DNA of 63,776 nucleotides, counting the filler, from Collodictyon triciliatum (taxonomy: Eukaryota), in the NCBI GenBank assembly GCA_043381765.1. It is 11 parts of 11 records of this genome, joined end to end, with 100 filler letters (N's around TTAATTAATTAA, not from the genome) between each part and the next. Parts side by side here need not be neighbours in the genome. Positions count along the whole stretch, not along the records: positions 13,062 to 19,493 come from JBHJMP010004459.1; 10 more parts are not named here. One strand, given 5' to 3'. How positions within the stretch are numbered: the first letter of the stretch is position 1; each line of letters opens with the position of its first letter. Below are positions 7,121 to 39,752 of this stretch, piece by piece. Below the pieces are notes generated by a model. It was not told the origin of the DNA, searched no databases, and worked only from the letters and a program-made list of their open reading frames with translations. Position numbers and translations under genes: made by a program.

Positions 7121-10100
7121 TTACTCTGCGTTAACATTCGCCAGGAAGGGTTCCAAGAATGACTCTCCATTAATCAATTTTGTCGAAGCAATAATGTAAT
7201 CGCGACGAACAGGCCCTGATTAGGATATGAAGTCATATTTTGATAATATTATTTAAACTTTGCTTGACAGTTTGTTGGTTTCGGGGGGGTGCACTCACCA
7301 TCCTCTTGAATCTTTTCCAAAAAGCGCAGACATGAAATCTCTGCGTGAGTCACTCCTCCGATAAAGTAGACAAGGACAACAGAATTCCTTTGCTGTGTTT
7401 GTTCTTCAGGGCGAAAAGACGATAAATAAAAACAACCGATTAAAAAGAATGGCATTAGATTTTTTTTTAAAAAAAAAGAATTGTAACATTGCCAAATTAA
7501 TCTTTATCATAATTGAAGGGCTTGCGCTTCTTTATCCATATACTTCTACTGACGAGGCTGGCTATTTATCTCAATTAACAATCATACTGCCTTCTCTTGT
7601 GGCTGATGGCAGCTGTTGACTCTCCTCGAATAGCGGTCCGGGAAAGCACCGTAGAGCTTCATCCACTTGCTTAAATCCTCCAGTTCTTAGTGCAGCTTGG
7701 ACGAATCGACAGCTAATAGGAGCATATCTAATAATACAAGATTTGGTGATAGTTAAAAAAATGCAAAATCTTAAAGTCTTTGGTAAAAAATGAAGTTGGT
7801 AAATTTCAGACAAAAGGTCAAACTTGATAATGAAAATGTTTTTTTTTTTATCTTCCTTTCAATTTTGTGCAGGATGGTGAAGATGTCGGCTTGATAATGA
7901 AAATGAGAGTGAAAATGAAACTAATAACAAATGCATTCAGATATGATATGGCTAGATTGGAGAAACAAACCCAGCAAAAGCATATGATATATCTTTCTCC
8001 TCTTCCTCCCCTTCAACTAATTTTTTTATATATAAAAAACAAGACAATTATTAGATTAACGCAAATTAATCTTAAAACACATGTAAATATATAAGTTGAA
8101 ATATAAGTTAAATATTTCTCGAGCCCGAGACTAAAACCTGGAATAATAATGACAATAAGAAAACTGTTTAAATATAATCTTGTATATTAAACGTACCCCA
8201 TAGTTTCAGACCTTTGCGAGCAGTATTCCAATTGGAGCGGACCTAGGTGTCGAAATACATTCAACAGAAGCATAGTATCATTCAAATTAGATCAAAGGTT
8301 GTATTTGCAATTGGATAGTTGGCTGCTCATTCGCGGTTCAAGAGTGTGATACCTCATTCTTTTTTAACAATCCAGCCTTCTCGAGATTAGTGAGAGTAAA
8401 CATGTGATGGTATCCATAGGCCTAATATTATTACTACTTTTAAGATAAAATGGGAGTGATTATGACTGCGCACTAGCGATTATTTTAACTATAAAAAACC
8501 CCCCAATTCGTTTATAGTTAAGACGACGTATACTTGAAGGAAATCGCGTCGTATGCTATCAAACGCCTTTTGTTTGAACCCGTTATTAGTTAGGGAGTAT
8601 AGACAGAGTAGGCGCAAAACTCTGGCTATTGGCTCTTGTCGGTGGATACAGTCCTCTAGGTACTCTATTGATGCCTCGTTTCCAGAAACCATGCCTGTGA
8701 GATGTTTTGGAAGAAAAATAAAAATGTTTGTCAAAATAGAGAAGACGCATGAGTCCACAAGAGAAATCGACCTTGTTATTATCTATTTTATTTATCTATT
8801 TATTTATTTTTATCAATTTCTGCAAGATGGTTGTGATTTTGGCTTTGGGGCTATTGACTTTCATTATTTTATTACGCATATACAAACATTGTTCCTGCTC
8901 CAACCGGTAATGGAATGTGCTCTCTTTTGTAATTCCCATGATTTTGTCAGCAATCGATGTATCTAAATATTAAAGCGATACAACTATATTTAATGCTTAA
9001 AAGGATTTCACCAAGAGGAAATTTATTTTAAACAAGGAATAATAATCAAAAAATGCATCGAAATTCGATTATTACGCAGCCCCAAAGATTGATGGTCTTG
9101 TTTCAGAGTTGGAAGCTTTTNNNNNNNNNNNNNNNNNNNNNNNNNNNNNNNNNNNNNNNNNNNNNNNNNNNNNNNNNNNNNNNNNNNNNNNNNNNNNNNN
9201 NNNNNNNNNNNNNNNNNNNNNNNNNNNNNNNNNNNNNNNNNNNNNNNNNNNNNNNNNNNNNNNNNNNNNNNNNNNNNNNNNNNNNNNNNNNNNNNNNNNN
9301 NNNNNNNNNNNNNNNNNNNNNNNNNNNNNNNNNNNNNNNNNNNNNNNNNNNNNNNNNNNNNNNNNNNNNNNNNNNNNNNNNNNNNNNNNNNNNNNNNNNN
9401 NNNNNNNNNNNNNNNNNNNNNNNNNNNNNNNNNNNNNNNNNNNNNNNNNNNNNNNNNNNNNNNNNNNNNNNNNNNNNNNNNNNNNNNNNNNNNNNNNNNN
9501 NNNNNNGCTTTTTTGCTCAATTCTGGTCCAACTTTGCTAAAGCTAAGGTCCCGTATCTAATGTATTTGGATGTATCGTATCAATATAAAAAATTAGAGAG
9601 GATTTCTTTCATCAAGGCCATAACCTCAGAGTAAAGTCTGTCGTTTGAGTTTAAGGGGATTTTAATCTTCTTCTGGCCTGGCTTGGGTTGTATGCCCAAA
9701 TCTTCGGGATCCATATCAACGAAGCCTATAACATAGATGCGGCAAGATAGCATATGTTAAAATATAAGTCTGCAGGAATTATAAGCTCCTCAGAATTACA
9801 AACAAATGAAAAAAATCTACTGAATGCCAATTATAATCATCAATTGGATTCATTACCGTTATTCTTTTTAAAAATTTCATCAATCAATCCCTCATATGTA
9901 AGTTGAGTCATCATCGGCGTCACAAGGTCGATTTCTCTGTCGACAAGAATGAGTGTATCTATTTCTGATGTATGATTCAAGTCATCGGATCCCATTTCTT
10001 TCCGCATCCGCATTATCATATCCAGAACTAGCTATTAGAATACGATGTTGCTTCGTATTAAAAGATAATTTCATTACATGTGATATGGCCGATAAAGAAA

Positions 10101-11510
10101 CGCACCCTTGCTGACGTTCCTTTTCCTTTAATATTGGGAATCAACCCAAAAGTCGATTGTATCTTCATAAGAGACTGCGCCACGTGATGAAGTGATGTCC
10201 TGTCTCCATCCTAGGAGATAAAATGCATTAACTATTGTTGGAAAGAAATACAACAATATGCGTACACGCTAACTGTTACAGGAAATTTGATAAGAAAATT
10301 GCTTAAGCAAAGCATATGTGTTTATTTGTTGGTTGGTTGGTTGTTGTTTTTTTTAGAAGAAGAAAAAGGGAATGGTGAAAAAACGATGATATCCGCAACT
10401 GAATCCATTTATCCCATTATATATCCGACACCTTTGAATGGTTTGATTTGAATTATCGGTGAATATTTTGAATACCAAAGTGCAGTCTCTATAGCTTGAC
10501 TCCAATTCCAACGAAAGAACATCGTCATCGAAGGGGATCAAATCCAGTTGGTAATCAGCTATGTTGATATCTGAAGGGAGGGAAAATATGATTGAACAAA
10601 ATAGGATGGTATAATCATTCGAAAGGTTTCTTTAAAAAAAAATCCCTAAATAGAATGAGTTCATAAAGTAGCAAAGTATAAATTGACCTCCAAAGACACC
10701 CTCCTCTTCCAGCACACTTTTACACAGTAAGGTCTGGCGCGGTACAAATGCCACGGTGTAGATTTTTGAGGGGTCGCTCTTTTGATTTTGTTGAATATGC
10801 TGGGCGATGTATTTCATATAGGCAATCTTTGGGCGAACGATGTAGACCAAACTTTTGCATTCAGTCTCCAGGGGCTCCGGTCCAAGTAGATAAATCTTCT
10901 CGACGCCATGGTCCTAACCATATTTTATCGTGCATACCCAATTAAGTGATGTTGTATAATGAAGGTGCGGAAAGGAATAGAAAATATTCCAGGGAGTTAA
11001 AATAGGACAATTTCACGGTGTGATTATGGAAAGAGGTGTAACCTTTAACATGGATACTTCAGCAATGAGGCCTAGAGGTCCTGATAGCTTGGGGTCGAGA
11101 ACGAGTCCCTTTTTTCCGCGCACCTGTTCGATAAGTATATCGTATTTTAAATGGCCCAGTTACAACTCCCCAAGAGAGGTATTTGGGAGGGAAGGTATGA
11201 CTTTTACGATGGCTACCCTGATATATTACCAACTTTTTACAGCAAAAAAGAAGAGGAAAAAAAGAGGAGGACGAGGAGGAGGAAGATGTGAGTGTGGTTG
11301 GATGAAAAGAATGTATGCCGAATGCAACGTGAACAAGACCTTAGTGTTGGAACCAAGGGTGAAAAAAATTGCACTTACAGAGTCAAGGAGATCCCCAAGA
11401 AGTTTGCGAGAGAAGTTCCGTAGCTCACTGATGGCAATCACTTCATTGGCTAGAGCAGAGGCTCCAGAGGCTGGTGCGGGTGGGGGATTTTGGCTCTGGG
11501 CACCCGACAT
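7121..11510 (-). CDS. VPS33: Vacuolar protein sorting 33 (Sec1/Munc18 family, HOPS/CORVET subunit), multi-exon
   Basis: Exons encode LLDS|VRGKKGLVLDPKLSGPLGLIAE, LVYIVRPK, FVPRQTLLCKSVLEEEGVFG, DLIPFDDDVLSLEL, LILVDREIDLVTPMMTQLTYEGLIDE, RVLRLLCLYSLTNNG, YAPISCRFVQ, VLVYFIGGVTHAEISCLRFL and IIASTKLING, all hallmark Vps33 segments. Confidence 0.95.
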
Positions 11511-13061
11511 CTGTCCCTCTTGTTAGGACAAGGCGGAATAGTATGCGGTTTTCATGGTTGGTGAGAAATCATGCAGACTTCAGAATGACTTAAGTTGAAA
11601 GGAATCAAGAAGGGAATAAGGTGAATGGGATTTGATCGCTCGATCCCACAGAGGTCGTTGGGCTGCTTTTTGGAGAAAGGGGGGAAAGATGCGTCGCTAA
11701 GGAGGTTTGGCGATCAGTCACTAATTTGTTTGAATGGTCTTTCGTTTGACATTTGTTTTTTATTTTTGTTGGTAGGATGTGAGTGAGGCAGGTTCGAACA
11801 GGTTTATCCACCAATGCAGAAAACATTGGTCGATCTGCCGTCTAATTCTCGCGACAAAGAAGCAGCCAGTCGCAGAATGATGCTGGAGGGAGCCCGTATC
11901 GCATCGATTATTTGCGACTGAACCGTCCTTTGGGCTCATCGCCTAGTAGAATGATTATGCTGGACAATCTTTTGGTTTGGCCTTTTGCTGTGATGGCATT
12001 TGACGACCAATCCCTCAATCCCCCTTGAGTCAACCATCAACACCAACTCAAACAGAAATGAAGGAGGTTGGGAGGAGGAGGAAATGACGGGCATTAATAT
12101 GTAATCTGCGAAGAGTTTGACCTCTATTCGAGTTAGTTTATGCGGAGATGCGTACCCTGGCGTGATGATTGCGACGCGGGGTGGAAAAAAATGTGTGTTG
12201 GGATGGGGCTGCTCTACCCTTTCTTTGCCGTTTTGTTCATTTATGGAATATAAAATGAGATTTTTAAAAATACAATATAAATCAATAATAACATTATATA
12301 AGCATAAATACCCGTAGTAACATATAGCTATAATATATATCATGTTATCATATGTCCCCCGTACCGCAGCGAAATGAATTGTGGACGAATGTTTGCCAAA
12401 ATTTACAAAAACTAAAGAATGACCACATGAATTCAATCATTCTGTACAGGAATGGAATAAATATTTGAATCCGCTATTCGAGGGCACTGGAAAGGAAATA
12501 TTTCGGTAGAAAATATTACTATAGACAGATAAAAAAGGGCAAAACTCAGAAAAACTATTTATGGATCTAAACGCATTTTAAAAATGTTTTCCACCTCTCC
12601 TAAAAATGTGTTTGGGACTATAGGCATTTCCCTTCGATTCCGGCCTTCCTTGTGGTTAATTGGGTGTCTTTGTGCATTTCGCTTTGAATCAGACTTTCTC
12701 TCCGCCTCTTCTCCAAGCAACTCCCACGGTCGACGCGCTCTGTCCACCAGGTATGTCTGACCAAAGCCAACCTCACCCAGACAAGCAGAGCAAAGCAAAG
12801 GCAACACCCAATTCTAACAACACGAATCCCCAACTCTCCAGGTCTACAAACCTTCTCTACACCCTCAACCGAAAAACTTAAGCAATGTCCGCACGCGGTA
12901 AGACACAACTTTACAAAACAATATAAAACAAAAAAGAACAAAAGAACAAAAGAACAAAAGANNNNNNNNNNNNNNNNNNNNNNNNNNNNNNNNNNNNNNN
13001 NNNNNTTAATTAATTAANNNNNNNNNNNNNNNNNNNNNNNNNNNNNNNNNNNNNNNNNNNN

Positions 13062-13516: not shown

Positions 13517-16500
13517 CTATTTGATCTTTCCCCCATTTTCATTTTCATATTCCTCTCTTCTGACGTAGGCATCCTGGGGGTAAAAATCTAGTGGATACAT
13601 ATAAATCAAATCAAATTTAATAGGCGAGCATGGTGGAAGCGTCTCAGCTGAGCACAGACTCGGATTGATGAAGTACAAATATCTTCCATTGTCGAAGAAA
13701 CCCGAGCTTATCTCTGTGATGCGTACAATCAAGTCGACGTTCGACCCGAACGGCATTCTGAACCTGTACAAATATCTGCCGTAGATATACTACAAACACG
13801 AATTCATCACATGAGTGCATCAGTGCCCAGTGCATGAATGCATCAACATTCTGTGTGGTTTTGTTTGTGGTTATCTTTATTCTTTGAATGAGACAAAGCT
13901 CTGAAATAAAACCAAAGAGAGAAAGAGAGAACATAGACTCAAAGTGCGAAGGAAAGAAAAGCACCCTCCATATCCACGCACCAGTGCGGCGCATAACACA
14001 AAAAGTCATTTTCCTGCTTGGAGAGCCTTCACTAAAAGAATCAGAGTAAACAAACCACGATGCAGAGTGCCTCCTTAGGCGACGAGAACAACAGCCCCGC
14101 GACCGGGATAGTCGCCCTCGGCCAAAGGCGCACCCACAACGACGCCGGAGCTGAAGATGGCCATGTCAAACCCAAACGCGCTGTTTGGAGGCAGAAAGTC
14201 AGAAGCGACGTTGCGCGTAGCGGAGTACGAGACTCTGTTTGGACGCGACTTGTAGACGGTGAATCCGCGCGTGGGCGAAGGAGCATCGGACGCCTCGCCC
14301 TCAAACACAACAAGGACATCTTCGTAGGCGGCCATGCGATACCCAAAGAGTTGTCCGTCATGCGCTGATGTAGGCGTGAGTGTTTGTGCAAGCGTGATTT
14401 CAGAGTATCCTCGGATGTCAAATACAAAGACTGCTCCGCTCTGGATGCCTGCGTAGCTGTATCCCATGTCCCCGACAATAAGCGACGTTGGAGTCAGAGA
14501 AAAGGACGATGCAAATAGGCTCGACCCAAACCCTGACCCGGTCACGATGCCCTTGAGGCGGAATCCGCTCGGGTCGAACGCATACACGTAGACACTTGAC
14601 GCTCGTGATTCGGGCTTGTTTGACACAGCAGCATGCTGCTCAGACAAGTTGATGGATGTGTAGCTGATATCACCATGCGGAGGGTTGGCTTGGTTGACTT
14701 GCTCCACATGGTAAGGATGCATGCTGATGGCCACGCTCACCCCAAAGTTGTCTCCTGCTTGGCCGTCCGCTGGCGTGATTTTGAAAGGATACAATTCCCA
14801 GCCAGAGTCCGAACCTGGGTTCATCAGGTAAAAGTAGGCGGCACCGGTCTCGAGCCCGTCATCATTCTTTGCATGCGGTGCACCAACCAGCATAAAATAC
14901 ATCAACACATCCAGGGAGGCGCCAAAGAGACCGTCAACTGGCGCAATGGTGTCCCAGGTCGGAGGAAGCACGGTCTTTGTATAGTGGAAGGAGTTGTCAA
15001 CCCACTGGTAGATGTGGATGGCTGCCGAGCTTGCACTTCCGATGGTGCTTGCTGCGCATGAGATGAAAGCATAGTCCCCTCTGACGACAACTTTTTGTCC
15101 GCACTGGGCATCCGCCGTTTCCTCAGGGTTTGATATCTGGCCTATCGGGATGAGTGTGCCTCCAATGTCGAACAAGATGGATACAACGCCGCCATCACAG
15201 GCCAATCCCGGGATGCAGAATGGCTGTCCAACAGCGACAACCGGCCCATCTGCAGAGATAGAGTACCCAAAACCAAACGAGTACGTGTTCTGCGGTGCAG
15301 GTGCAACACTCGCTGTTGTTGAATTGTATTATTTTATGTATTTTTTGTATATGCGATGAGAAGGATTGATAAATAGAAAAGGTTGAATGTGTTGCAATCG
15401 TACAAAATCCCATCGCTTATGACACACGGAGTCAGATTTGATACGGGAATAGGAAACATGAGAAGAAATGAAATAGAAGCAGGGTTGGGGTTTGACTTAC
15501 GGGGTGGTGTCATCTCCTCTTCGCAGTACTTTCCGCCATACCTATTATTGCAAGCACATCGGTCGAAGGCCTCAAAGATACCGTGGTTGTTGCAGATTTC
15601 GAATCCTTTGGTGTAAGAACAATCACGTCCCTGAATGGGTGTAATGTAAATACTTAAGCCTGCATTATTCACGGAATAAAAGCCATCGAGCGTAAAAAGC
15701 AATCTCCAATAATGACCGAGCTAATTTTTTCCTTACAAAGAAGCCCTCAGAGCATATGCATTTCCCAGCGCTGCAAATTCCACTGTAGCTGCAATCAGAG
15801 TTACTCTTGCAAGGAATATTCAAGTAGGCTGAAATCGATGTGGCGTCCGAAGCCGTGTTGCTTCCACAGTCATCATTACCAAAGTGTGACTTGCATCTCT
15901 GGAGAACGAGACACTTCTCGTCCAAGTCTACAACGAGGCCGGTGGACTTTGTCTTGAAAATCCCTACAACGGTGTCGTCGCTCTTTCGAATGATTGGGGA
16001 GCCCGTCAAATCTCCGAAGGCGTTGGTATCCTTTTGAAACCAAGGTTAAAAATAAAGCTTTTGAGAACAATTTATTGCATTTTTGCATCAAACAGTCCTA
16101 TTTAAGAAATCAAATCATCGCTATTTCAAAAAAAAAAGTTTAGAACTGAAGACAAAATTCATTTTTTGTTACATTTATAAAAGTCTAATTACGGTAATGT
16201 AGAATGATCCAAAAGCCTTGTCTCCGCTGGTGCGTGCGTTTCCTTTTTCTGCATACTTTTTTGGCAAGCCATTTGGGTGGCCAATCACCATTATAGACTC
16301 CCCTGTTTCTATCTGTATTTTTAAAATTGACACGATTATGCCAGTGAAATGTTTTGAAAGGAATCTTAATATTTCTTCTTTTCATATGACCTTCGTGGGC
16401 GATATTTTCAAGGGCTTTCGACTCAGAACATGTCTATCTAAGGTTACGATGACGTTCCCGCGTGCGTCCGTGGTGTAAGCCAAGCAAGAATAAACCTTTA

Positions 16501-18552
16501 CTCAGAAAGTATTCGTAAATTATTCATCGCGCTTATCATTGCGACATACGGACTGCTTGCTGACATCGGGTATACATACTTGGTCCGATTTAAAATTTGT
16601 GTGTGGTGAGCCTCTTTCGTCGATGGCGTAGTCAAAAACAAAGTAGGAGCTGCGACACTCAGTCATGTCTTTGATGCTAGTCGGGGACATAAGAATAAAA
16701 TTTAAAATTATACTGCGTATTGGAAATATGTGAAGCATAGAAATGCACATACATTCATCTTAAATGGAATCAATATATTGGGCTTAGCAGAGAACCATTC
16801 TCCGGATGTGGCAATTTGACTCTGTGACACGAGGAATCCGGTGCAGGATGAGACAACCGGCTTTGATTGTATTATGGACATAAACGTTAACAAATTTACA
16901 AAGAGACTACATTTTCTGTAGAAAGTGATGAACTACCTGGTCGCGGAATGGCTGGTTACTGCACACACCCAAGTCTCTGAACTTGCCTTGATAGTTGGCT
17001 ACATATGACCCACCGGCTTTGCGAATAAGCTGATGCTTATGTTGAAAGAAATTGTCAGTGCTAGTTCTATCTGACAAAATGGCGTTGTCCCATGCACTAA
17101 ATTATTGTTAAAAATTATCATATCAATATTTTTTTCAAAAAAAAAAACATACTTGTCTCATGACAGCCACCACTGAACTGCCTAGACCTCGGAGTCTGCT
17201 GTTAACCTTATTCTCTTCCTTCGGTGTGGTGGGAGTATGAACTTCTCTTGATATCTCAATAGCCTTTCGGATAGCTGAGCGAGTTGCTAGATAAAAGTTG
17301 TATGCATCCAGGTTATTGGGATTGCCTATGTTTGCGAAAACAGCCCAGTAGTTAAGTTCTCTATCCACGACAGGGAGATATCCTTGCCATCCGAGACTGT
17401 GCTGCATGCCCTTAGAAGAGCATGGAACTGTTAGGTTTGTAGACTCACAGACAACCCAGTGGAAGTAAGCGTAATGCCATCTGCTATATTCAGGACCCCA
17501 TGTACTATCAGCCACTGGATATGGTGTATAGTCCGTCTCAATCAAGGCAACGGTTTCAGGTTTGACCACTCGGCCAGCGACATATGCTCCAAGGACTCTT
17601 GCATACCAGGTGGGTGTTGTAAATAGTCCTGCGCCCGGTCTTCCCCCAACTTCGTTCCAGTATCTGAAAGGTTGCCCTAGATTATTAGGAATCACAATTT
17701 CCTCATCAACGAGCTGTTGGTATGTTTCCTTTCCTGATGCAAGAACTGCCATCTGTCCGGCAATTAAGTTATGGTGCTCGATGTAGTAGAACTTTGTTCC
17801 AGGGTATCCCACAGGCTGGACGTTACTATCATAGATCTCACGGACGCAGTCAGCAAGGCTGACATCAACGCTCTGATATCATAGTTTCGATGAATTTAAA
17901 GATTAGTATATCTGATTGGCTTTTACACGCTTGTTTTGAAAGGGGGATGGAGTTTACCTCAAAGGACACAGAAAAATTATGAGGTTTGAAATTTGTCACA
18001 AAATGAGAACCATGAAGCAATCTGGGTCTGTAACTCCGTAACCAGAGGTGAAGGAAAGCAGGTGGTGAAGAGTGATCGCAGAGCGCCAGTCGCTGGGATC
18101 TGTGGTCCAGTAATCGATGTACTTGCTGGGTTTGTCGTCCAGGCTCAACACACCACGCTCCACCAGGCGCATAATGACCATGCTACTGATCCATTTACTT
18201 GCACTCCATAAACGTGTTGCGGTGTCGCGTGTGTACCAACCTATCGAATGGAATGCCAAAGGTCTGCGTTACATCTTTTCATGCATGAATACCCAGCATT
18301 ATGCCTTAATCAGAGGATGTTTCCTGTGGCTATAAAATGGAATGTCTTGCCTTTTTCGTGGACAAAGACTTCCCCACGGTCATCTCCAATTATCAACGCG
18401 ATATTTGGAAGCAGGTCATTGTTATCCAGCCGGCGGCGAACTTCGCTCCAGACGTCATCTTCGGCTAGTGATCCGGCGACAGTGACAGAGAGGGCGAGTA
18501 CCCCTAAGATAAGAGCTGCGCCCAATAAACTCTTTATGGATAAAGAGTGCAT
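13517..18552 (-). CDS. Secreted multidomain protein of about 1185 aa: signal peptide, beta-lactamase/PBP-like serine hydrolase, inactive trypsin-like domain, 2 EGF-like repeats, 7-blade FG-GAP propeller, short C-terminal tail
   Basis: Twelve exons, all phase-compatible: 18552-18351, 18240-18011, 17872-17153, 17035-16937, 16860-16796, 16676-16580, 16495-16391, 16312-16193, 16030-15737, 15630-15501, 15312-14090, 13789-13517. Motifs: WSASKW (SxxK), LLSFTSG, PGTKFYY; CTGFLVS, IGHPNGLPK, TGSPII; CSYSGICSAGKCICSEGFFGRDC; FGASL..VGAP..GAAYFY, DNFGVSVAIS. Confidence 0.85.
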
Positions 18553-19284
18553 CCTCCTGATTCTATTGAGGTGAGGATGGTGTGATGTTCAATTATTGAG
18601 AAAAAATGAGAGGACTTGCAGCGGGTGGCCCTAAAGACAGAAAGCTTCGTCTGGTATCTTGGAGGCGGAATAAAATAAAAAAAGAAGCCGATGCTGACAA
18701 AGCGTGAAGTTGATCCGGCATGTATTGTGCTTTTCATCGATGCATCAAGAACATTTGAAGGGTGCATGAGTGCAGACCCGTAAATGGTCTTTCTTGAACA
18801 ATATCTTTGATTCGGAACGGTTTCAAAGCGTTGAAGCAGAGCAGCTTCAGGGCGTGTCCTGCTTCTCCGTGCTTGCATTTGTTCTTTGTCCACATGGTTG
18901 CTTCTGTATATCTTCTTTTTGTGCGCTTGGAACAACACTGAACGGGAATCAATGGTGATAATACGACATTAATCATGCTACAGTTACCCCAGCGAGCCGG
19001 GCTTCAGAATAAATAAACGCGGTCATCCAAGCGCGAGCAGAAAAAAAGAACCGGAATAGGAAGGACCGATGGCTATATATACAAAGAATATATGCGGAAA
19101 TTGCATTTGGAATTTCTTATCTAAATGCGGAACTTATAATAAATATCTTTATTTTGTTTACTCGAATCATGAATATTGTAGAATTTATAATTTTACGGAT
19201 GCCGTTATCAATCACATACAAGAGCTACTGAGTATAAACAGACCTTCTCTTTGCTCTTTGCAGTGTAACGAAAATGGCATCGGG

Positions 19285-22560: not shown

Positions 22561-23344
22561 TTTTTTTCTTTATTCGATTCAAAGTGCAGCGAGGTTATGC
22601 CATACGAAAGAAGTGAGATGGGTGCGCATGGGAGAGAGAAAACGCGAGTAGGAGAAGACACTACCGTGGAGAGGGTAGCACTGGAATGAAGTCAGTGATA
22701 GCGAGTTGGTCAGGTGGGCGTCCCAACTTGTTGATTGGTTGCGTGGGTAGCAGGGGTTGGATGTGCTGTGGGAGATATCGCACAACACATTCCCACATCT
22801 CTCTTCGCTTGCGGTCAGAGTAGCGAAGAATACAGGCGTCTTTCAGCAGGCTGTTCAGGAAGCTGTATTGCACGAGGCTTTCAAGCCTGGATACATTGAT
22901 TTCTCGTTCGGATGAATCATTAGAGCGAGGTAATGCACGCACACCCCATAAGAACCACAGCATATGTCCCCTTGTGACTGTCCAGAGTATTCTAGAGTCG
23001 TGGGTCATTTAGTATTGTCGGCCAAACAGGATGTCAGACGCGCTGAGTCGGTTGGGAGGATAATCAAGCTCAGAGAGCATCTTGTGAGTAGATTCTGTCA
23101 CTTTTTGAGCCAGGAAGCACTTCACAAATATGTGTTCGATAGAGTCATCTCCACTATGGCACATTGTGCATTCTGGAGAGGTCGTTGCTGCATGGACTAC
23201 ACGCGCACCTATCCACAGTTCTCTGTTGGAGATATTGAGAAGTAGGGCGCGGTGCTTCGGGAGTAGCTGAGATATGCGGGCTTGCTTCCAGCTTTTGACT
23301 ATCGGCGGGTCTATAATGCCTATAGTTTCGGCCCAACGACTCAT
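22561..23344 (-). mobile_element. 5'-truncated L1/Tx1-like LINE, 3' end (family A, copy 1), decayed
   Basis: ORF2 C-terminal CCHC knuckle CTMCHSGDDSIEHIFVKC, then LWFLWGVR. In-frame TAA at 23009-23011. Ends with AATAAA and an A tract at about 22561. Closely similar to 59470-59941. Confidence 0.85.
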
Positions 23345-24576
23345 CTTCTCCGGTTTGTAGGATTCGGACTGATGATTTTATATCAAAACAGCTTTTCGAA
23401 TAAAGAAAAAAATATCAAAACAGCTTGGAATATGCCATGGCCATCGAGAATTGCGGATATTTGGGTCTTCATATTAGAATTATATCCAATAGTTATACAT
23501 TTAGTGACATATTTCATGAAGAGGTAAACCCGTTCATTTAATTGAAAATTATTTGCATCCCTGTTTATGTGTTTCTCTGTCTCTTATGAGATTACTTTCT
23601 TTTGTCTATGTCACAGTCGTTATTTTTATTTTCGACTCTTTTTTTTTCTTTAATACAAACCACAATATCTACACTCACAAAAGCAAAGTTTTCTTTCCTC
23701 ATTGTCTTTGATATCTCACAAATTTGTTTCCCAACAAGCCTTTTCCAAAAAAAAAAAGTAATATGTTTAAGTCTCTCCAGAATAATATGTTATTTGTAAT
23801 AGCTCATTGAAGTATGAAGAACGTTTTTGGTAATGCATAGTTAACATATTGGTTATGTGGCACATGCCCTTGATGCTTAAAGATTTTTAGTTGTGTATAT
23901 GTCTTGCTGCTTCATTTGAACGGTACATATCAAGTTTATCCTCTATCCACTTGCTACTTTTGTTTATTTTGTCTTTTTTTATTGGAATAGTAAATAGTTT
24001 TTTTTGCTCAATCAGAGCAAGCATCGCTTTCCTGCCTGATAATCTTGTAGTAATATGAGCTGTAAAGTGGAACGAATCCCCAGAAAAAATATACCCGCAC
24101 TATTATTCGCGTAAATTATATCCATAACGATTGCACATAAAGCACAATTTTTTTCATAATCAAATTTCTGCTTTCTTTAATTTCGTGTGTTTATGTCTTC
24201 ATTTTATGCATATTTTATTGCACTATTGTGTATTCCCTTTTTCTTACAACCATATGTATTGTGCACTCAGCCTTGTTTGTTCCATTACGCTGTCTTCAAC
24301 CTCATTACGCTATTACTAGATTGCTTCTGGTCAGTCGGTCTCGTTTCCTGATTTTTACCTTGATCTGATGACCTTCTTTTATCGCCTTCCACCATTCTTT
24401 GGCTCCCATTGTTTCTCATTCAATCATTTTTGTCTTGTTAAAAGACAACTTTCTATAATCAAAAAAATAAGTAAAATCGATGTATAGACCTTTGCTATAA
24501 CAAAAACTGCTAATAGTTTCCTGTCATGAATGACAATCACTACGCCTATCATGTGATTCTTTTTTAAAAAAAATGC

Positions 24577-29391: not shown

Positions 29392-32361
29392 AATCCATTG
29401 ACATCTTTCAAGCATTTATCCTAGCCTCTTTTTGAATAAAGTAATTATAATCCAGGTCGCAAACAAGTGAAGAATTTCCTGCAATCATAGACGAAGATAA
29501 ATCAGAACAAATTATATACGCGCCAGATATCTATGATGATCAGCAAAATCAGGTTTCTTAAAATTTATTGATTCTGGTAAAGCCACGAATGAGATAACGT
29601 TTATGAGCATTTCGAGGGCGTTTTACTTTATAACCATGATTGATTTTTTTCTCTCGTCTAAGCTGCAATCAACATATTTGATACTCCCCCTTCTTTTAGC
29701 CTTCCTTTGTGCTATCCATACACAAATCTGCTTTTCGTTTTCATCTTGATTTTTCTTTATCTAATCTGCCCAACCTCTGAATCAAAGACCGGAAAAAAAT
29801 CCTTGTCTACTTATTTCTTGCGCCATTTTCTCATACGGAATTTATGCAGATTATTCAAGAGCTTTCCAAGAAACTCTCAGAATATGAAACCATCCTGCAT
29901 ACAATGTCTGCATCGTGGACTCATGCTGAGACGGTTGACCGACATGTCAGAAGCCAGCCTGAGTTCGCCCGCACTGGCCTCCCTATAGGTTTCTCTACCA
30001 CAACCCCAATAGATATAAACACGACCACAATCAGCGATGCACACTTTTATGTGTATTCTAAACATACTCGTGTGAAAATCTGTTATGAGTTTATCAACAT
30101 CAACAACATCAACAACATCAACAACATCAACAACATCAACAACATCAACAACATCAATATATTATATTATATTTTATTATTATTTAAAAAGAAAGCATAA
30201 AAATTATTATTCAGCCAATCAAAACAAAAATATATACAGGACCATCCCAATACTCTATCGACCCCATTCTCCAGCAAAAGCAGCATCTTATCGATGTCGA
30301 AAGACTGATGCCTCTTACTATCGAACCTACTGAAAAACTCAGATCCAGAGCACCTTCGTATATTTCCAGATAAACACTCGCAATCTGATGTCCATAATTA
30401 TCGCGCAGACACAAACTTGAGCCATGTATTCAGTTATACGTAATTATGAATTGAATACCTTTCTCTCCTCATGAATTAGGTATCTGATGCAAACAGCGTC
30501 AACAGCGTCAAGAACCCCTAGTTCACGCGCCGAAACAACTCGAAACTTTCTTCGCTCTGGAAGCACCATGCGCTCGAATTCCTGTACGATTATAACCTCC
30601 TTGAAAATATTTTGGATTTTTTAAATTAATAGATATGATATATAGTCGTCTAAACGCTCATTTAACCGATTTTTCGGAATCACACCATATAATTAAAAAT
30701 CACTCTTGAAGGCATGTGCATGCTTTCAAGTTGTTAAAGAAACTAGACAAATATACCACAATCAACTCCTTACGATTACAACTATGATTTTTTAAATAAT
30801 GGATTATGTATGAATACGGACTCGCCACATTACTATTCCCCTTTTCTTCTCTCTTCAATAATATTGTATTTTTTCACTCACAACTACATCCTAGCTTCAG
30901 TCAAGCCCCTGGTTCAATCCACTGAGGTCGACCAAATGGCTGATAGCCTGGCGAAGGGGTCGAATTATGACGCCATTGAGATTTACGGAGGAAAAAAGAA
31001 AGCACGTCACGTATGGATGGAGTCTATGACTAGTTACCAGAGAGAGGTTGAAAAAGCAGTGTTAAAAAAGATGATTTTTAGGTAAGATTTCTTATTTTTC
31101 CAATCAAAATATGATAAAGTAAAAAAAAAAAATACAGTTAAGTTTCCCGGAAGCATAATTTTTGTTTCAATCCCTCCTTCCTTTACTCCAATCACTATCT
31201 TAAAGGATTGCTTGATTGAAATAAACTAGGAGCGATTTCCTAAAGAATCCCCGCTTTGAACCAGAAAAGTCAAAAACATTGAAGCCTGGTCAAGAAATGG
31301 AGCCATTCCCATCTGTAATCCACTTTACAGATTTCCACCCTCATCAAGTATATGAAATCCCGCTTGTCTTGCGCAATATCAGCTCCATCAGCCGGTATTT
31401 CTGCCCGACAGTCGCCACTTCATCGCTAAAACTAAAAAAATAATTCAATTTTTTTTTTTTTAAACAAGAAACTCTTTCTCCCTTGTATCGTAACAAGTAT
31501 ATGAGGTGCCGCATCCCTTAACATAGCCATTCTGTCCCCAACTTACCTCTATCCAAATATTTACACATTAGTCGAGTTCGGGTTCTTCCTCCACGCACGC
31601 CATATTTTTCGGTGACTTTGGCCCGCTATCCAACGGATGATGGGCTTATTGCTCCTGGAATGAAATGTCAATACATGATTCGATTCGCACCTGATAGCTT
31701 CGCTGACCATGAGGTTTTCTTCTTGTCATTAAAGTACCGACTTAACAGGAGTGAAAACAAACCATAGACATCCTCCACATCGCGTCTCTATTCATGTTCT
31801 CTAACTTTGCCCGTTCATTTTTCCCCCTTTTCCTTTTCCTTTCCATTTCTTAAACTCATTAACAGGATGAACTGGCGGTGATTACCGAGAACCATCGTTT
31901 CTGTATTCCTATACATGCAACTCGCCCACCGCCACAGCTTTCACTTCCCACCGTTTTTGATTGCGGTACCTTATGAAACCAAGCCAAAACACTATTAATT
32001 TCCGTATACCTATTCTCGTTACTCTCAGAGTGTATCACCATATTTAAAGCATTATATATCAATACATTCTTTATCAGGAGCGGCATTGATCGGTTCGGTG
32101 AAAACTGTCCAATTCAGCTGTACCAATTCTGGTGGGACCGGAAGCTTCAAGATTTTCCCTGAAATAGTCCCTGTGGATAGTTTGAATCAAACGCAAAATG
32201 ATGAGAATGATGAGCTCATCCTCGAACCTTTTCATATTTCCCCGACAAGCTTCTCTCTTGACCAAGGAGAAAGCACGCAGTTACAAGTGAAGTTCTGCCC
32301 TAACTCACCGCTTATATATGGTCTTCGCTTCCAAATTGCATGCGACAATTGCCAAACCAGG
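28224..32361 (+). CDS. DLEC1: DLEC1/CFAP81 (FAP81) ciliary central-apparatus protein, 5' part; the rest is lost at the spacer
   Basis: Exons from 31230 encode FLKNPRF, VIHFTDF..YEIPLVLRNISSISR|RVRVLPPRTPYF, GLIAPGMKCQYMIRFAPDS, RPPPQLSLPTVFDCG, CTNSGGTGSF and IACDNCQ, which is the DLEC1 ASH-domain signature. The upstream exons (28224-31082) and the start codon are tentative. Confidence 0.85.
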
Positions 32362-32656
32362 TACATTCAACTATTCACACATACATATTCCACAGATATT
32401 CTTTATGATTGACCAATTCAGGGTTCCTCTATTTCTCTTTGTCTTTGTCTTTGTCTTTGTCTTTGTCTTTGTCTTTGTCTTTGTCTTTGTCTTTGTCTTT
32501 GTCTTTGTCTTTGTCTTTGTCTTTGTCTTTGTCTTTGTCTTTGTCTTTGTCTTTGTNNNNNNNNNNNNNNNNNNNNNNNNNNNNNNNNNNNNNNNNNNNN
32601 TTAATTAATTAANNNNNNNNNNNNNNNNNNNNNNNNNNNNNNNNNNNNNNNNNNNN

Positions 32657-39189: not shown

Positions 39190-39752
39190 CAATGTCCCTT
39201 CGCTCAAAACCTGCGCGAAACAGCCGGTGAGATTCTTCGACTGACACTCAAGACGGCTGCGGCTGTTGGCCCAATCCAGGCGATATTTGGGCATCTGCAA
39301 CAGCTGCGTCCAGATGCAAAAACATTCTGGGCAGTAAGCGAGGCCATTTGCTATGGACTATATGGATATCGCGCATATACTCACGCAAAGTAAGATTCAA
39401 CAACCAGCCACCCATTCCTGATAACAGGCTGAATGACATAATACAAATCTCTTTCCTCAATAGCTTTCTTCGTCACCTGCACGTCCTCTACTACTCAGAC
39501 CCTGTGAGAAGAGACATGTGGAAAGAAGCTGAGAAAGAGATTCAACCTCGCCTTATCTCTCTCATGCAAGCACAAGACCCGGGCTACAGGCCAAACTGCA
39601 GGATGCAATTCCTGATTACCGACTACTTCTCCGCCACCCGGCCACCAAGTAGTGTCCATGCAAACAATGACCAGCGAACTAAAGCCAACATTTCTGCCAT
39701 CTTGCACAAAATTGAAAGGAAGAATGATAGTAATAATAATAATAATAAAAAT
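39190..39752 (+). mobile_element. LINE 3' end (family B, related to family A) with an (AAT)n tail
   Basis: LLWTIWISR..QISFLNSFLRHLHVLYYSDPVRRDMW..IQPRL..FLITDYF aligns with family A LWFLWGVR..QYSFLNSLLKDACILRYSDRKRREMW..IQPLL..LAITDFI. Ends in AAT repeats. Confidence 0.75.

Follow-up and report, generated by a model that had tools for sequence, protein, structure and literature searches.

The DNA analyzed here (the window) is a stretch of 63,776 nucleotides from the Collodictyon triciliatum assembly GCA_043381765.1, in which 11 parts of the genome are joined end to end, and the gene under study lies at 18552-14075 on its minus strand, in the part taken from JBHJMP010004459.1. A first-pass annotation had placed at 15900..17200 a trypsin-like domain with its whole catalytic triad replaced. 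The motifs that it quoted are indeed there, all on the minus strand in six short exons running from 17035 to 15737, but this region is the middle part of a gene of 11 exons encoding 1099 amino acids. From the N to the C terminus, the five-part protein consists of a beta-lactamase-family hydrolase domain following a signal peptide, a trypsin-fold domain behind a short linker, two EGF repeats, and, after a Pro-rich linker, an FG-GAP propeller. Thus, the annotation recognized the domain and missed its setting, namely, the S-x-x-K hydrolase in front, the EGF and FG-GAP repeats behind, and the loss of the triad among paralogs in the host. The signal peptide was read by inspection as an N-terminal hydrophobic stretch, and the protein is presumably secreted. 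The trypsin-fold domain appears to be a serine protease homolog (pseudoprotease) and not an active S1 protease, as its fold is kept, its triad is replaced, and its gene is intact, spliced, and under purifying selection.

We aligned the domain of the window protein with 149 library relatives, gathered with the orthologous domain described below; residue numbers refer to the 1099-amino-acid model, and the aligned columns carry chymotrypsin-type role names. The triad columns hold Glu438 (codon GAA) for His, Gly484 (GGG) for Asp, and Thr555 (ACG) for Ser, while H-D-S occupies them in 143 of the 149 relatives, five being substituted and one truncated. The annotation was therefore right about all three positions: TAGHC has become TSGEC by exchange of His for Glu; DYALV has become GNVIV with loss of Asp, the replacing residue being Gly484; and GNSGSP has become DLTGSP with Thr for Ser, to which the loss of the oxyanion-hole Gly and of an Asp six residues before Ser has to be added. 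Among the 143 intact relatives, 46 columns are near invariant (at least 85% conserved). The window domain keeps 28 of them, including all six near-invariant Cys and most Gly and Pro, so that the scaffold is preserved, as had been proposed. Three of the 18 lost columns are mild changes; the other 15 comprise four in the N-terminal YGxDxR segment, two in the His motif, the Asp itself, four in the Ser loop, and four in two motifs further downstream. The YGxDxR segment, 91-97% conserved in intact relatives, gives way to the fusion linker. In the Ser loop, D-L-D-T-F-G-G-N-S-G-S of the family aligns with D-T-N-A-F-G-D-L-T-G-S of the window protein, in which Asn549 replaces the conserved Asp and Asp553 replaces the oxyanion-hole Gly, found two residues before Ser in 88% of intact relatives. 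Asp577 and Glu604, conserved residues of the downstream motifs, are replaced as well; judged by position, these motifs probably line the specificity pocket or act in activation. With H-D-S in 143 of 149 relatives and 28 of 46 near-invariant columns kept, including every Cys, the replacements are not due to chance. No TAGH- or GNSG-like motif was found in the six frames of 15700-17200. The five substituted relatives (P0023, P0024, P0131, P0144, and P0120) all fall outside the EGF-type clade described below; triad loss therefore recurs at a low frequency in the wider family.

One ortholog, P0001, was found outside the host genome, a complete transcript-derived EukProt protein of 1083 amino acids with the same five parts (1 match among 2185 candidates). 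It is 43% identical to the window protein in the trypsin-fold domain and 57% in the hydrolase, and it reads TSGEC, RGHVVV, and FGDFTGAP at the triad positions, which are the same replacements. Pfam Trypsin_2 matches P0001 at 36.8 bits (cut-off, 27.6), and the window exons, queried singly, gave no Pfam Trypsin match. An AlphaFold model of the P0001 domain and EGF pair reached a mean predicted local distance difference test score (pLDDT) of 87.4 and a predicted template modeling score (pTM) of 0.85; it represents P0001 and not the window protein, and its input alignment consisted mostly of active relatives, which favors a protease-like fold. This model superposes on S1 proteases with Z scores of 17-19 (maximum, 19.0), a root mean square deviation of 2.5-3.2 Å, and a Foldseek E value of about 2e-9. 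The modeled domain thus belongs to the trypsin-fold superfamily (clan PA/S1), and the earlier view that the fold is retained finds support. The best PDB match of the family profile was the Bacillus intermedius glutamyl endopeptidase 1p3c (E 9.6e-16). In Bacillus glutamyl endopeptidase, the liberated N terminus shapes the S1 pocket (PMC11970125); fusion of the hydrolase in front removes the N terminus that would form this pocket. The ratio of nonsynonymous to synonymous changes (dN/dS) in the dead domain, i.e., the domain with the triad replaced, was 0.107 (bootstrap, 0.07-0.16) between the window protein and its paralog L009 and 0.074 (0.04-0.13) between L009 and a second paralog, L010. In the comparisons with L010, dN was 0.21 and 0.18 for the dead domain and 0.25-0.28 for the hydrolase and propeller, suggesting that the dead domain is at least as constrained as its neighbors.

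The spliced frame is open across all 1099 amino acids and contains ten introns of 76-188 bases, nine with GT-AG borders and one, intron 1, with GC-AG. We compared RNA contigs from four public runs (X1, X2, X5, and X6, of which X5 and X6 are apparently one data set) with 14000-18700. The joints of 7 of the 10 introns (introns 2, 3, 5, 6, 8, 9, and 10) were seen, that of intron 8 with one synonymous change; introns 1 and 4 had no joint among the RNA contigs of the four runs, and the donor side of intron 7 was backed by one X2 contig. Hand translation of one loose X2 contig end gives RGNVIVTLD. The acceptor of exon 4 was set at 17035 from the RNA joint of intron 3, and contig X1-6 spans 17153-17684 of exon 3 and joins 17035. 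As to the joint 16796|16676, at which the first-pass annotation had allowed for a different splicing, an X1 contig matches it exactly, completing TSGE|C. Splicing that restores the triad was rejected, since His is given by none of the 13 open in-frame donor/acceptor pairs examined around this joint; no open alternative was found for the acceptors of exons 7 and 9. A pseudogene is ruled out by the open frame, the spliced RNA, and a dN/dS of about 0.1. An assembly artifact is likewise ruled out for the fusion, whose junction lies within one exon, exon 3, and recurs in L009, L010, L011, and the transcript-derived protein. The GC donor of intron 1 (18241-18350, minus strand) is replaced by GT at the same position and phase in L009, L010, L011, and L016.

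Exons of the gene and other features of the window
Feature	Position	Strand	Content and support
Exon 1	18351..18552	-	Start codon, hydrophobic signal peptide (by inspection), start of hydrolase domain; GC-AG intron follows
Exon 2	18011..18240	-	Beta-lactamase-family domain, S80-x-x-K83 intact; PF00144 E 1.3e-15; joint 17872|18011 in X1, X5, X6
Exon 3	17153..17872	-	Remaining hydrolase (motif-2 Tyr), linker in place of YGxDxR, first trypsin-fold helix and strand
Exon 4	16937..17035	-	Dead domain C..QPF..Q; acceptor from RNA joint, intron 4 from paralog models
Exon 5	16796..16860	-	TSGE|C, Glu438 at catalytic His position
Exon 6	16580..16676	-	Dead domain FVFDY; both joints in X1
Exon 7	16391..16495	-	RGNVIVTLDR, Gly484 at catalytic Asp position; same motif in X2 contig end
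Exon 8	16193..16312	-	IGHPNGLPKK
Exon 9	15737..16030	-	FGDLTGSP: Thr555 (Ser), Asp553 (oxyanion Gly), Asn549 (conserved Asp); domain end, EGF repeat 1
Exon 10	15501..15630	-	EGF repeat 2, Pro-rich linker; Pfam EGF-type matches below cut-off; joints in X1, X2
Exon 11	14075..15312	-	FG-GAP beta-propeller region and stop; PF14312 E 8.8e-17; no membrane anchor seen
Sec1-family gene	about 9840..11530	-	Eukaryotic gene
FAD-linked oxidase C terminus	13605..13781	+	Eukaryotic gene
zf-RVT match	23012..23377	-	Probable retroelement remnant
Frame similar in appearance to the zf-RVT match	39231..39752	+	Probable retroelement remnant
CFAP65 Ig-like match	about 32000..32410	+	Weak; fits a flagellate
OGG1-type glycosylase gene (eukaryotic)	47150..48031	-

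Two exon searches of the host's own genome returned the same 11 places. Four of these family members have an intact triad (L012, L013, L014, and L019) and seven are dead: the window protein, L009, L010, and L011, with the hydrolase; L015 and L020, without it; and L021, a fragment that is 99% like the window gene and has Thr in the Ser column. Ten members were modeled as genes, L021 being left out, and in all ten the seven intron positions and phases from the protease through the EGF part are identical, in agreement with the earlier claim that the domain has several introns and is long integrated. L016 (2189-3935) is a stand-alone S-x-x-K hydrolase that shares both hydrolase introns and groups with the fused hydrolase domains with a support of 100 in the SH-like approximate likelihood ratio test (SH-aLRT; 21 rows, quick tree). 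As introns are shared with the intact paralogs and with L016, two resident intron-bearing genes were therefore joined within the present exon 3, and the domain, as judged from these genes, appears to have undergone both triad loss and fusion within the host lineage. The idea of a recently transferred bacterial gene that was dead from the outset is ruled out by the seven intron positions common to dead and intact host paralogs, which form one clade. The propeller is present in L019 (intact), L015 (dead), and the library proteins P0002 and P0009 (intact triads); in L020, no propeller is seen up to the contig end, and the tail of L013, an intact protease, is hydrophobic.

A tree of 50 of the 160 domains, with long branches and a bootstrap that had not settled, placed 15 EGF-type rows on one side (100/99) and grouped the five fused dead domains (99/94) and all seven dead ones (96/88). 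When the trait columns were removed (26 rows), the EGF-type group held (98/95) and the dead groups collapsed; the propeller tree was unresolved. Asp577, 98% conserved, is Gly in all seven dead rows, which suggests one loss of activity preceding the fusion.

Several further observations were made on the paralogs. L020 (483-2892) and L015 (824-4035) both keep a signal peptide and an N-terminal activation-like segment, their triad columns reading E/N/E and S/G/S, respectively, and L015 carries the propeller. L016 has a Ser/Thr/Pro stretch and, in a last exon read by eye, an apparent hydrophobic tail; it is possibly anchored by glycosylphosphatidylinositol. The window gene has a mosaic likeness to L009: identity is 69-76% over exons 1-8, 89-95% over exons 9-11 (14075-16030 of the window versus 5218-6964 of L009), and 75% in intron 10, which points to a 3' part subject to gene conversion or recombination. 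Further fragments, 91-99% identical, occur on three other contigs. The propeller exon gave many weak matches in long open frames of about 700-2700 amino acids on several contigs, which would represent a large FG-GAP repeat family of the genome.

Among the best 80 of 590 confirmed GTDB relatives, 62 belong to Bdellovibrionota, 10 to Elusimicrobiota, 1 to Myxococcota, and 7 to other or unassigned groups; the scan patterns required intact motifs, so that all 80 are intact by construction. Of the kinship with Bdellovibrio and myxobacterial proteases noted in the first pass, the former part is borne out and the latter is marginal. The 14 eukaryote-type rows lie on one side of a branch with a support of 100 and are nested in no single bacterial group; the phylogeny advised in the first pass for finding the donor group thus gave no bacterial sister group that could be named. 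From the distribution of relatives, which are mostly Bdellovibrionota, a bacterial origin of the domain family is likely. By architecture and position in the tree, P0002-P0004 and P0009 are presumably eukaryotic. The view of the domain as a long-integrated pseudoprotease of a Bdellovibrio-type S1 family is supported.

The 18S rRNA gene of the assembly has no mismatch to either of two Diphyllatea-specific primers (PMC6052632), which span 1625 bases from end to end, about 1624 being expected; this placement in Diphyllatea presumes that the rRNA contig and the window come from one organism. The gene is unusually long at 2153 bases, and a second, shorter small-subunit match of 1440 bases, on another contig, might be of organellar or bacterial origin (loci L102 and L103). 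Both cyanobacteria and algae are engulfed by Diphyllatea, and their cultures have been fed Microcystis (10.1101/199125).

In the hydrolase domain, which resembles penicillin-binding proteins, appears functional, and matches PF00144 over the cut-off, the nucleophile motif SASK lies at residues 80-83. S-x-x-K and Tyr are intact in all five fused proteins, S-x-x-K also in the stand-alone L016, and the Tyr of motif 2 (Y-x-N) is present in all 20 rows, the third position being Glu in the window protein and variable among relatives. The nearest relatives (16 matches among 1189 candidates) are 25-35% identical and uncharacterized, some being named CubicO-group peptidase. The domain scores far below every NCBIfam cut-off, including those of class C beta-lactamases, AmpH, and LipE (P0001 matches LipE alone, at 23.6 bits versus 750), and therefore it should not be called a beta-lactamase.

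We propose, with a probability of roughly 0.55, that the protein is a soluble secreted digestive hydrolase whose dead trypsin fold is a zymogen-like binding or scaffold module. It would work in the food vacuole or extracellularly in a phagotrophic freshwater flagellate, and catalysis, if any, would be carried out by the N-terminal S-x-x-K domain, which would cleave prey material at an ester or amide bond. The trypsin-fold domain would descend from a resident active protease-EGF(-propeller) gene, ultimately of bacterial type; as it lacks not only the triad but also the oxyanion Gly, three acidic residues conserved in the family, and the activating free N terminus, it would stay zymogen-like. 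Together with the EGF pair and the propeller, the dead fold might form a noncatalytic arm holding prey material or a partner protein beside the hydrolase. It is probably useful beyond a spacer, because L015 and L020 stand alone, dead, and without the hydrolase, and a binding role is plausible.

Several points weigh against this proposal. The Asn of hydrolase motif 2 is missing from the window protein. The third motif of the beta-lactamase family and peptidase S12 is of the K/H-T/S-G type, and the candidate, in a register not anchored by structure, reads H-S-L-G in the window protein, H-S-G-G in P0001 and L010, and S-S-P-G in relatives. One X1 contig keeps intron 7 (16313-16390, minus strand), which has an in-frame length and brings an early stop, with intron 8 spliced; this may be partial processing or regulated retention. 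P0001 alone represents the orthologs outside the host genome, a metagenome scan having yielded 0 of 289 candidates and a search of shorter proteins 0 of 741. In the comparisons with L010, synonymous sites approach saturation, and for the dead domain they are saturated between the window protein and L010. Besides, the purifying selection may reflect a folding constraint on a linker domain instead of a binding surface.

Other roles have to be considered. The annotation had thought of a decoy, which in the classic active-site sense is weakened, as the replacements extend to the residues of the pocket, to the oxyanion Gly, and to the activating N terminus. A related possibility, unlikely in our view but deserving attention, is that the dead domain is a sink for prey protease inhibitors (cyanobacterial peptides or ecotin-type proteins), sparing the four active paralogs, while the tethered hydrolase may destroy the catch. 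The host 18S rRNA gene fits the Diphyllatea primers, Diphyllatea cultures are fed Microcystis (10.1101/199125), cyanobacterial protease inhibitors hit the trypsins and chymotrypsins of grazers (PMC2873468), active and dead paralogs coexist in the genome, and the GH28 pseudoenzymes of beetles offer an analogy (PMC6549527, PMC8213348). However, an inhibitor decoy should mimic the active cleft, whereas the window domain retains neither the Asp six before Ser nor Asp577, Glu604, or the oxyanion Gly, and selection on it is purifying, without any mark of an arms race at the domain level. We attach little credence to a further extension, in which, in a flagellate feeding on cyanobacteria, a protease once inhibited by prey peptides has become a noncatalytic receptor for them and the S-x-x-K hydrolase cleaves them, including D-amino-acid peptides such as microcystins. 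If true, this would identify a first candidate for the enzyme behind the degradation of microcystin by Diphylleia rotans, which is reported according to a reference title in 10.1101/199125.

The dead domain might also bind an active paralog or its own hydrolase and so control activation or targeting. Some animal protease homologs act as cofactors or regulators of this kind, intact secreted paralogs occur in the same genome, and the four closest fused proteins share 23 invariant positions, several of them near the old cleft, whose residues are rare in 147 intact relatives; three of these four sequences, however, come from one genome, and we consider the idea rather improbable. It is similarly improbable that the domain is a mere spacer or prey-adhesion stalk that distances the hydrolase from a binding propeller. 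Every recognizable functional residue is gone and the propeller also occurs in the active forms P0002, P0009, and L019, but amino acid change is slower in the dead domain than in the hydrolase and propeller, and stand-alone dead forms exist, among them L020, with no propeller up to its contig end. Finally, Thr555 with Glu438, Arg483, or Asp553 might have been rebuilt into a site of new chemistry, as all five fused proteins have Thr where Ser would stand, and Glu occupies the His position in the window protein, L010, P0001, and L020. We find this scarcely credible, since the His position holds Gly in L009 and Ser in L011, Asp or Gln has taken the place of the oxyanion Gly, and no general base is conserved; a conserved Glu as the new base is ruled out, Glu not being invariant.

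The protein is a clean pseudoenzyme case in which activation, catalytic, and pocket residues are selectively lost and the scaffold is kept. Nearly all intermediates, linked by shared introns, occur together in the genome of a eukaryote from a deep-branching lineage that has been little studied: the intact protease-EGF, the intact protease-EGF-propeller, the dead stand-alone form, the stand-alone hydrolase, and the fused dead form. A swap of catalytic duty between two bacterial-type enzymes can thus be traced and tested, and the genes are concrete candidates for enzymes that serve Diphyllatea in the digestion of bacteria and cyanobacteria as prey.

Dead trypsin-fold domains are common, and triad loss alone is therefore unsurprising; it is the setting that adds value. 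The serine protease homologs SMIPP-S of the scabies mite, haptoglobin, and the HGF protease-like domain have a trypsin fold with the triad replaced, as here; all three appear in the structural comparison, where their Z scores of 16.9-17.6 do not exceed those of active proteases. Unlike these animal S1A homologs, the window domain is of bacterial-type, S1B-like descent and is set between a second hydrolase and EGF plus FG-GAP repeats. In prokaryotes, 42 of 966 serine proteases are homologs of this kind, and a trypsin-FG-GAP protein is also listed (PMC2605481). The intact relatives share G-N-S-G-S and a short N-terminal activation segment with Bacillus glutamyl endopeptidase and the V8-type S1B proteases, while the window domain lacks the triad and the free N terminus; the family also has extra disulfides and the Asp six before Ser, and its specificity probably differs from that of V8-type enzymes. 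The secreted Trypsin_2 proteases of Bdellovibrionota and Elusimicrobiota, uncharacterized, are 36-43% identical to the intact eukaryote-type P0004 but, as far as seen, intronless and without EGF repeats or propeller.

GhTrp likewise shows an inactive, pro-enzyme-like trypsin fold that is part of a larger protein, with catalysis residing in a different domain (PMC11970125). Its fold is proposed to be activatable by excision, whereas the triad of the window domain is gone and excision therefore could not activate it. On the hydrolase side, S-x-x-K and Tyr are common to the window protein and the peptidase S12/class C beta-lactamase family (CubicO group), the window domain differing by its fusion to a dead protease. 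MlrB, a peptide-cutting S-x-x-K peptidase with S77-x-x-K80 and Y171 (PMC11070527), shares the general motifs alone and is set beside it by motif only. In beetle GH28, active and dead paralogs of a secreted digestive family also stand side by side (PMC6549527, PMC8213348); fold and substrate are different and no second enzyme is fused, so that the likeness is one of analogy only. Among the top-listed papers of a largely open-access literature, none dealt with this four-domain fusion or with this family in Diphyllatea. Thus, trypsin-fold pseudoproteases as such are common, and what appears to be new here is the architecture, in which a hydrolase is followed by a dead trypsin domain, an EGF pair, and an FG-GAP propeller.

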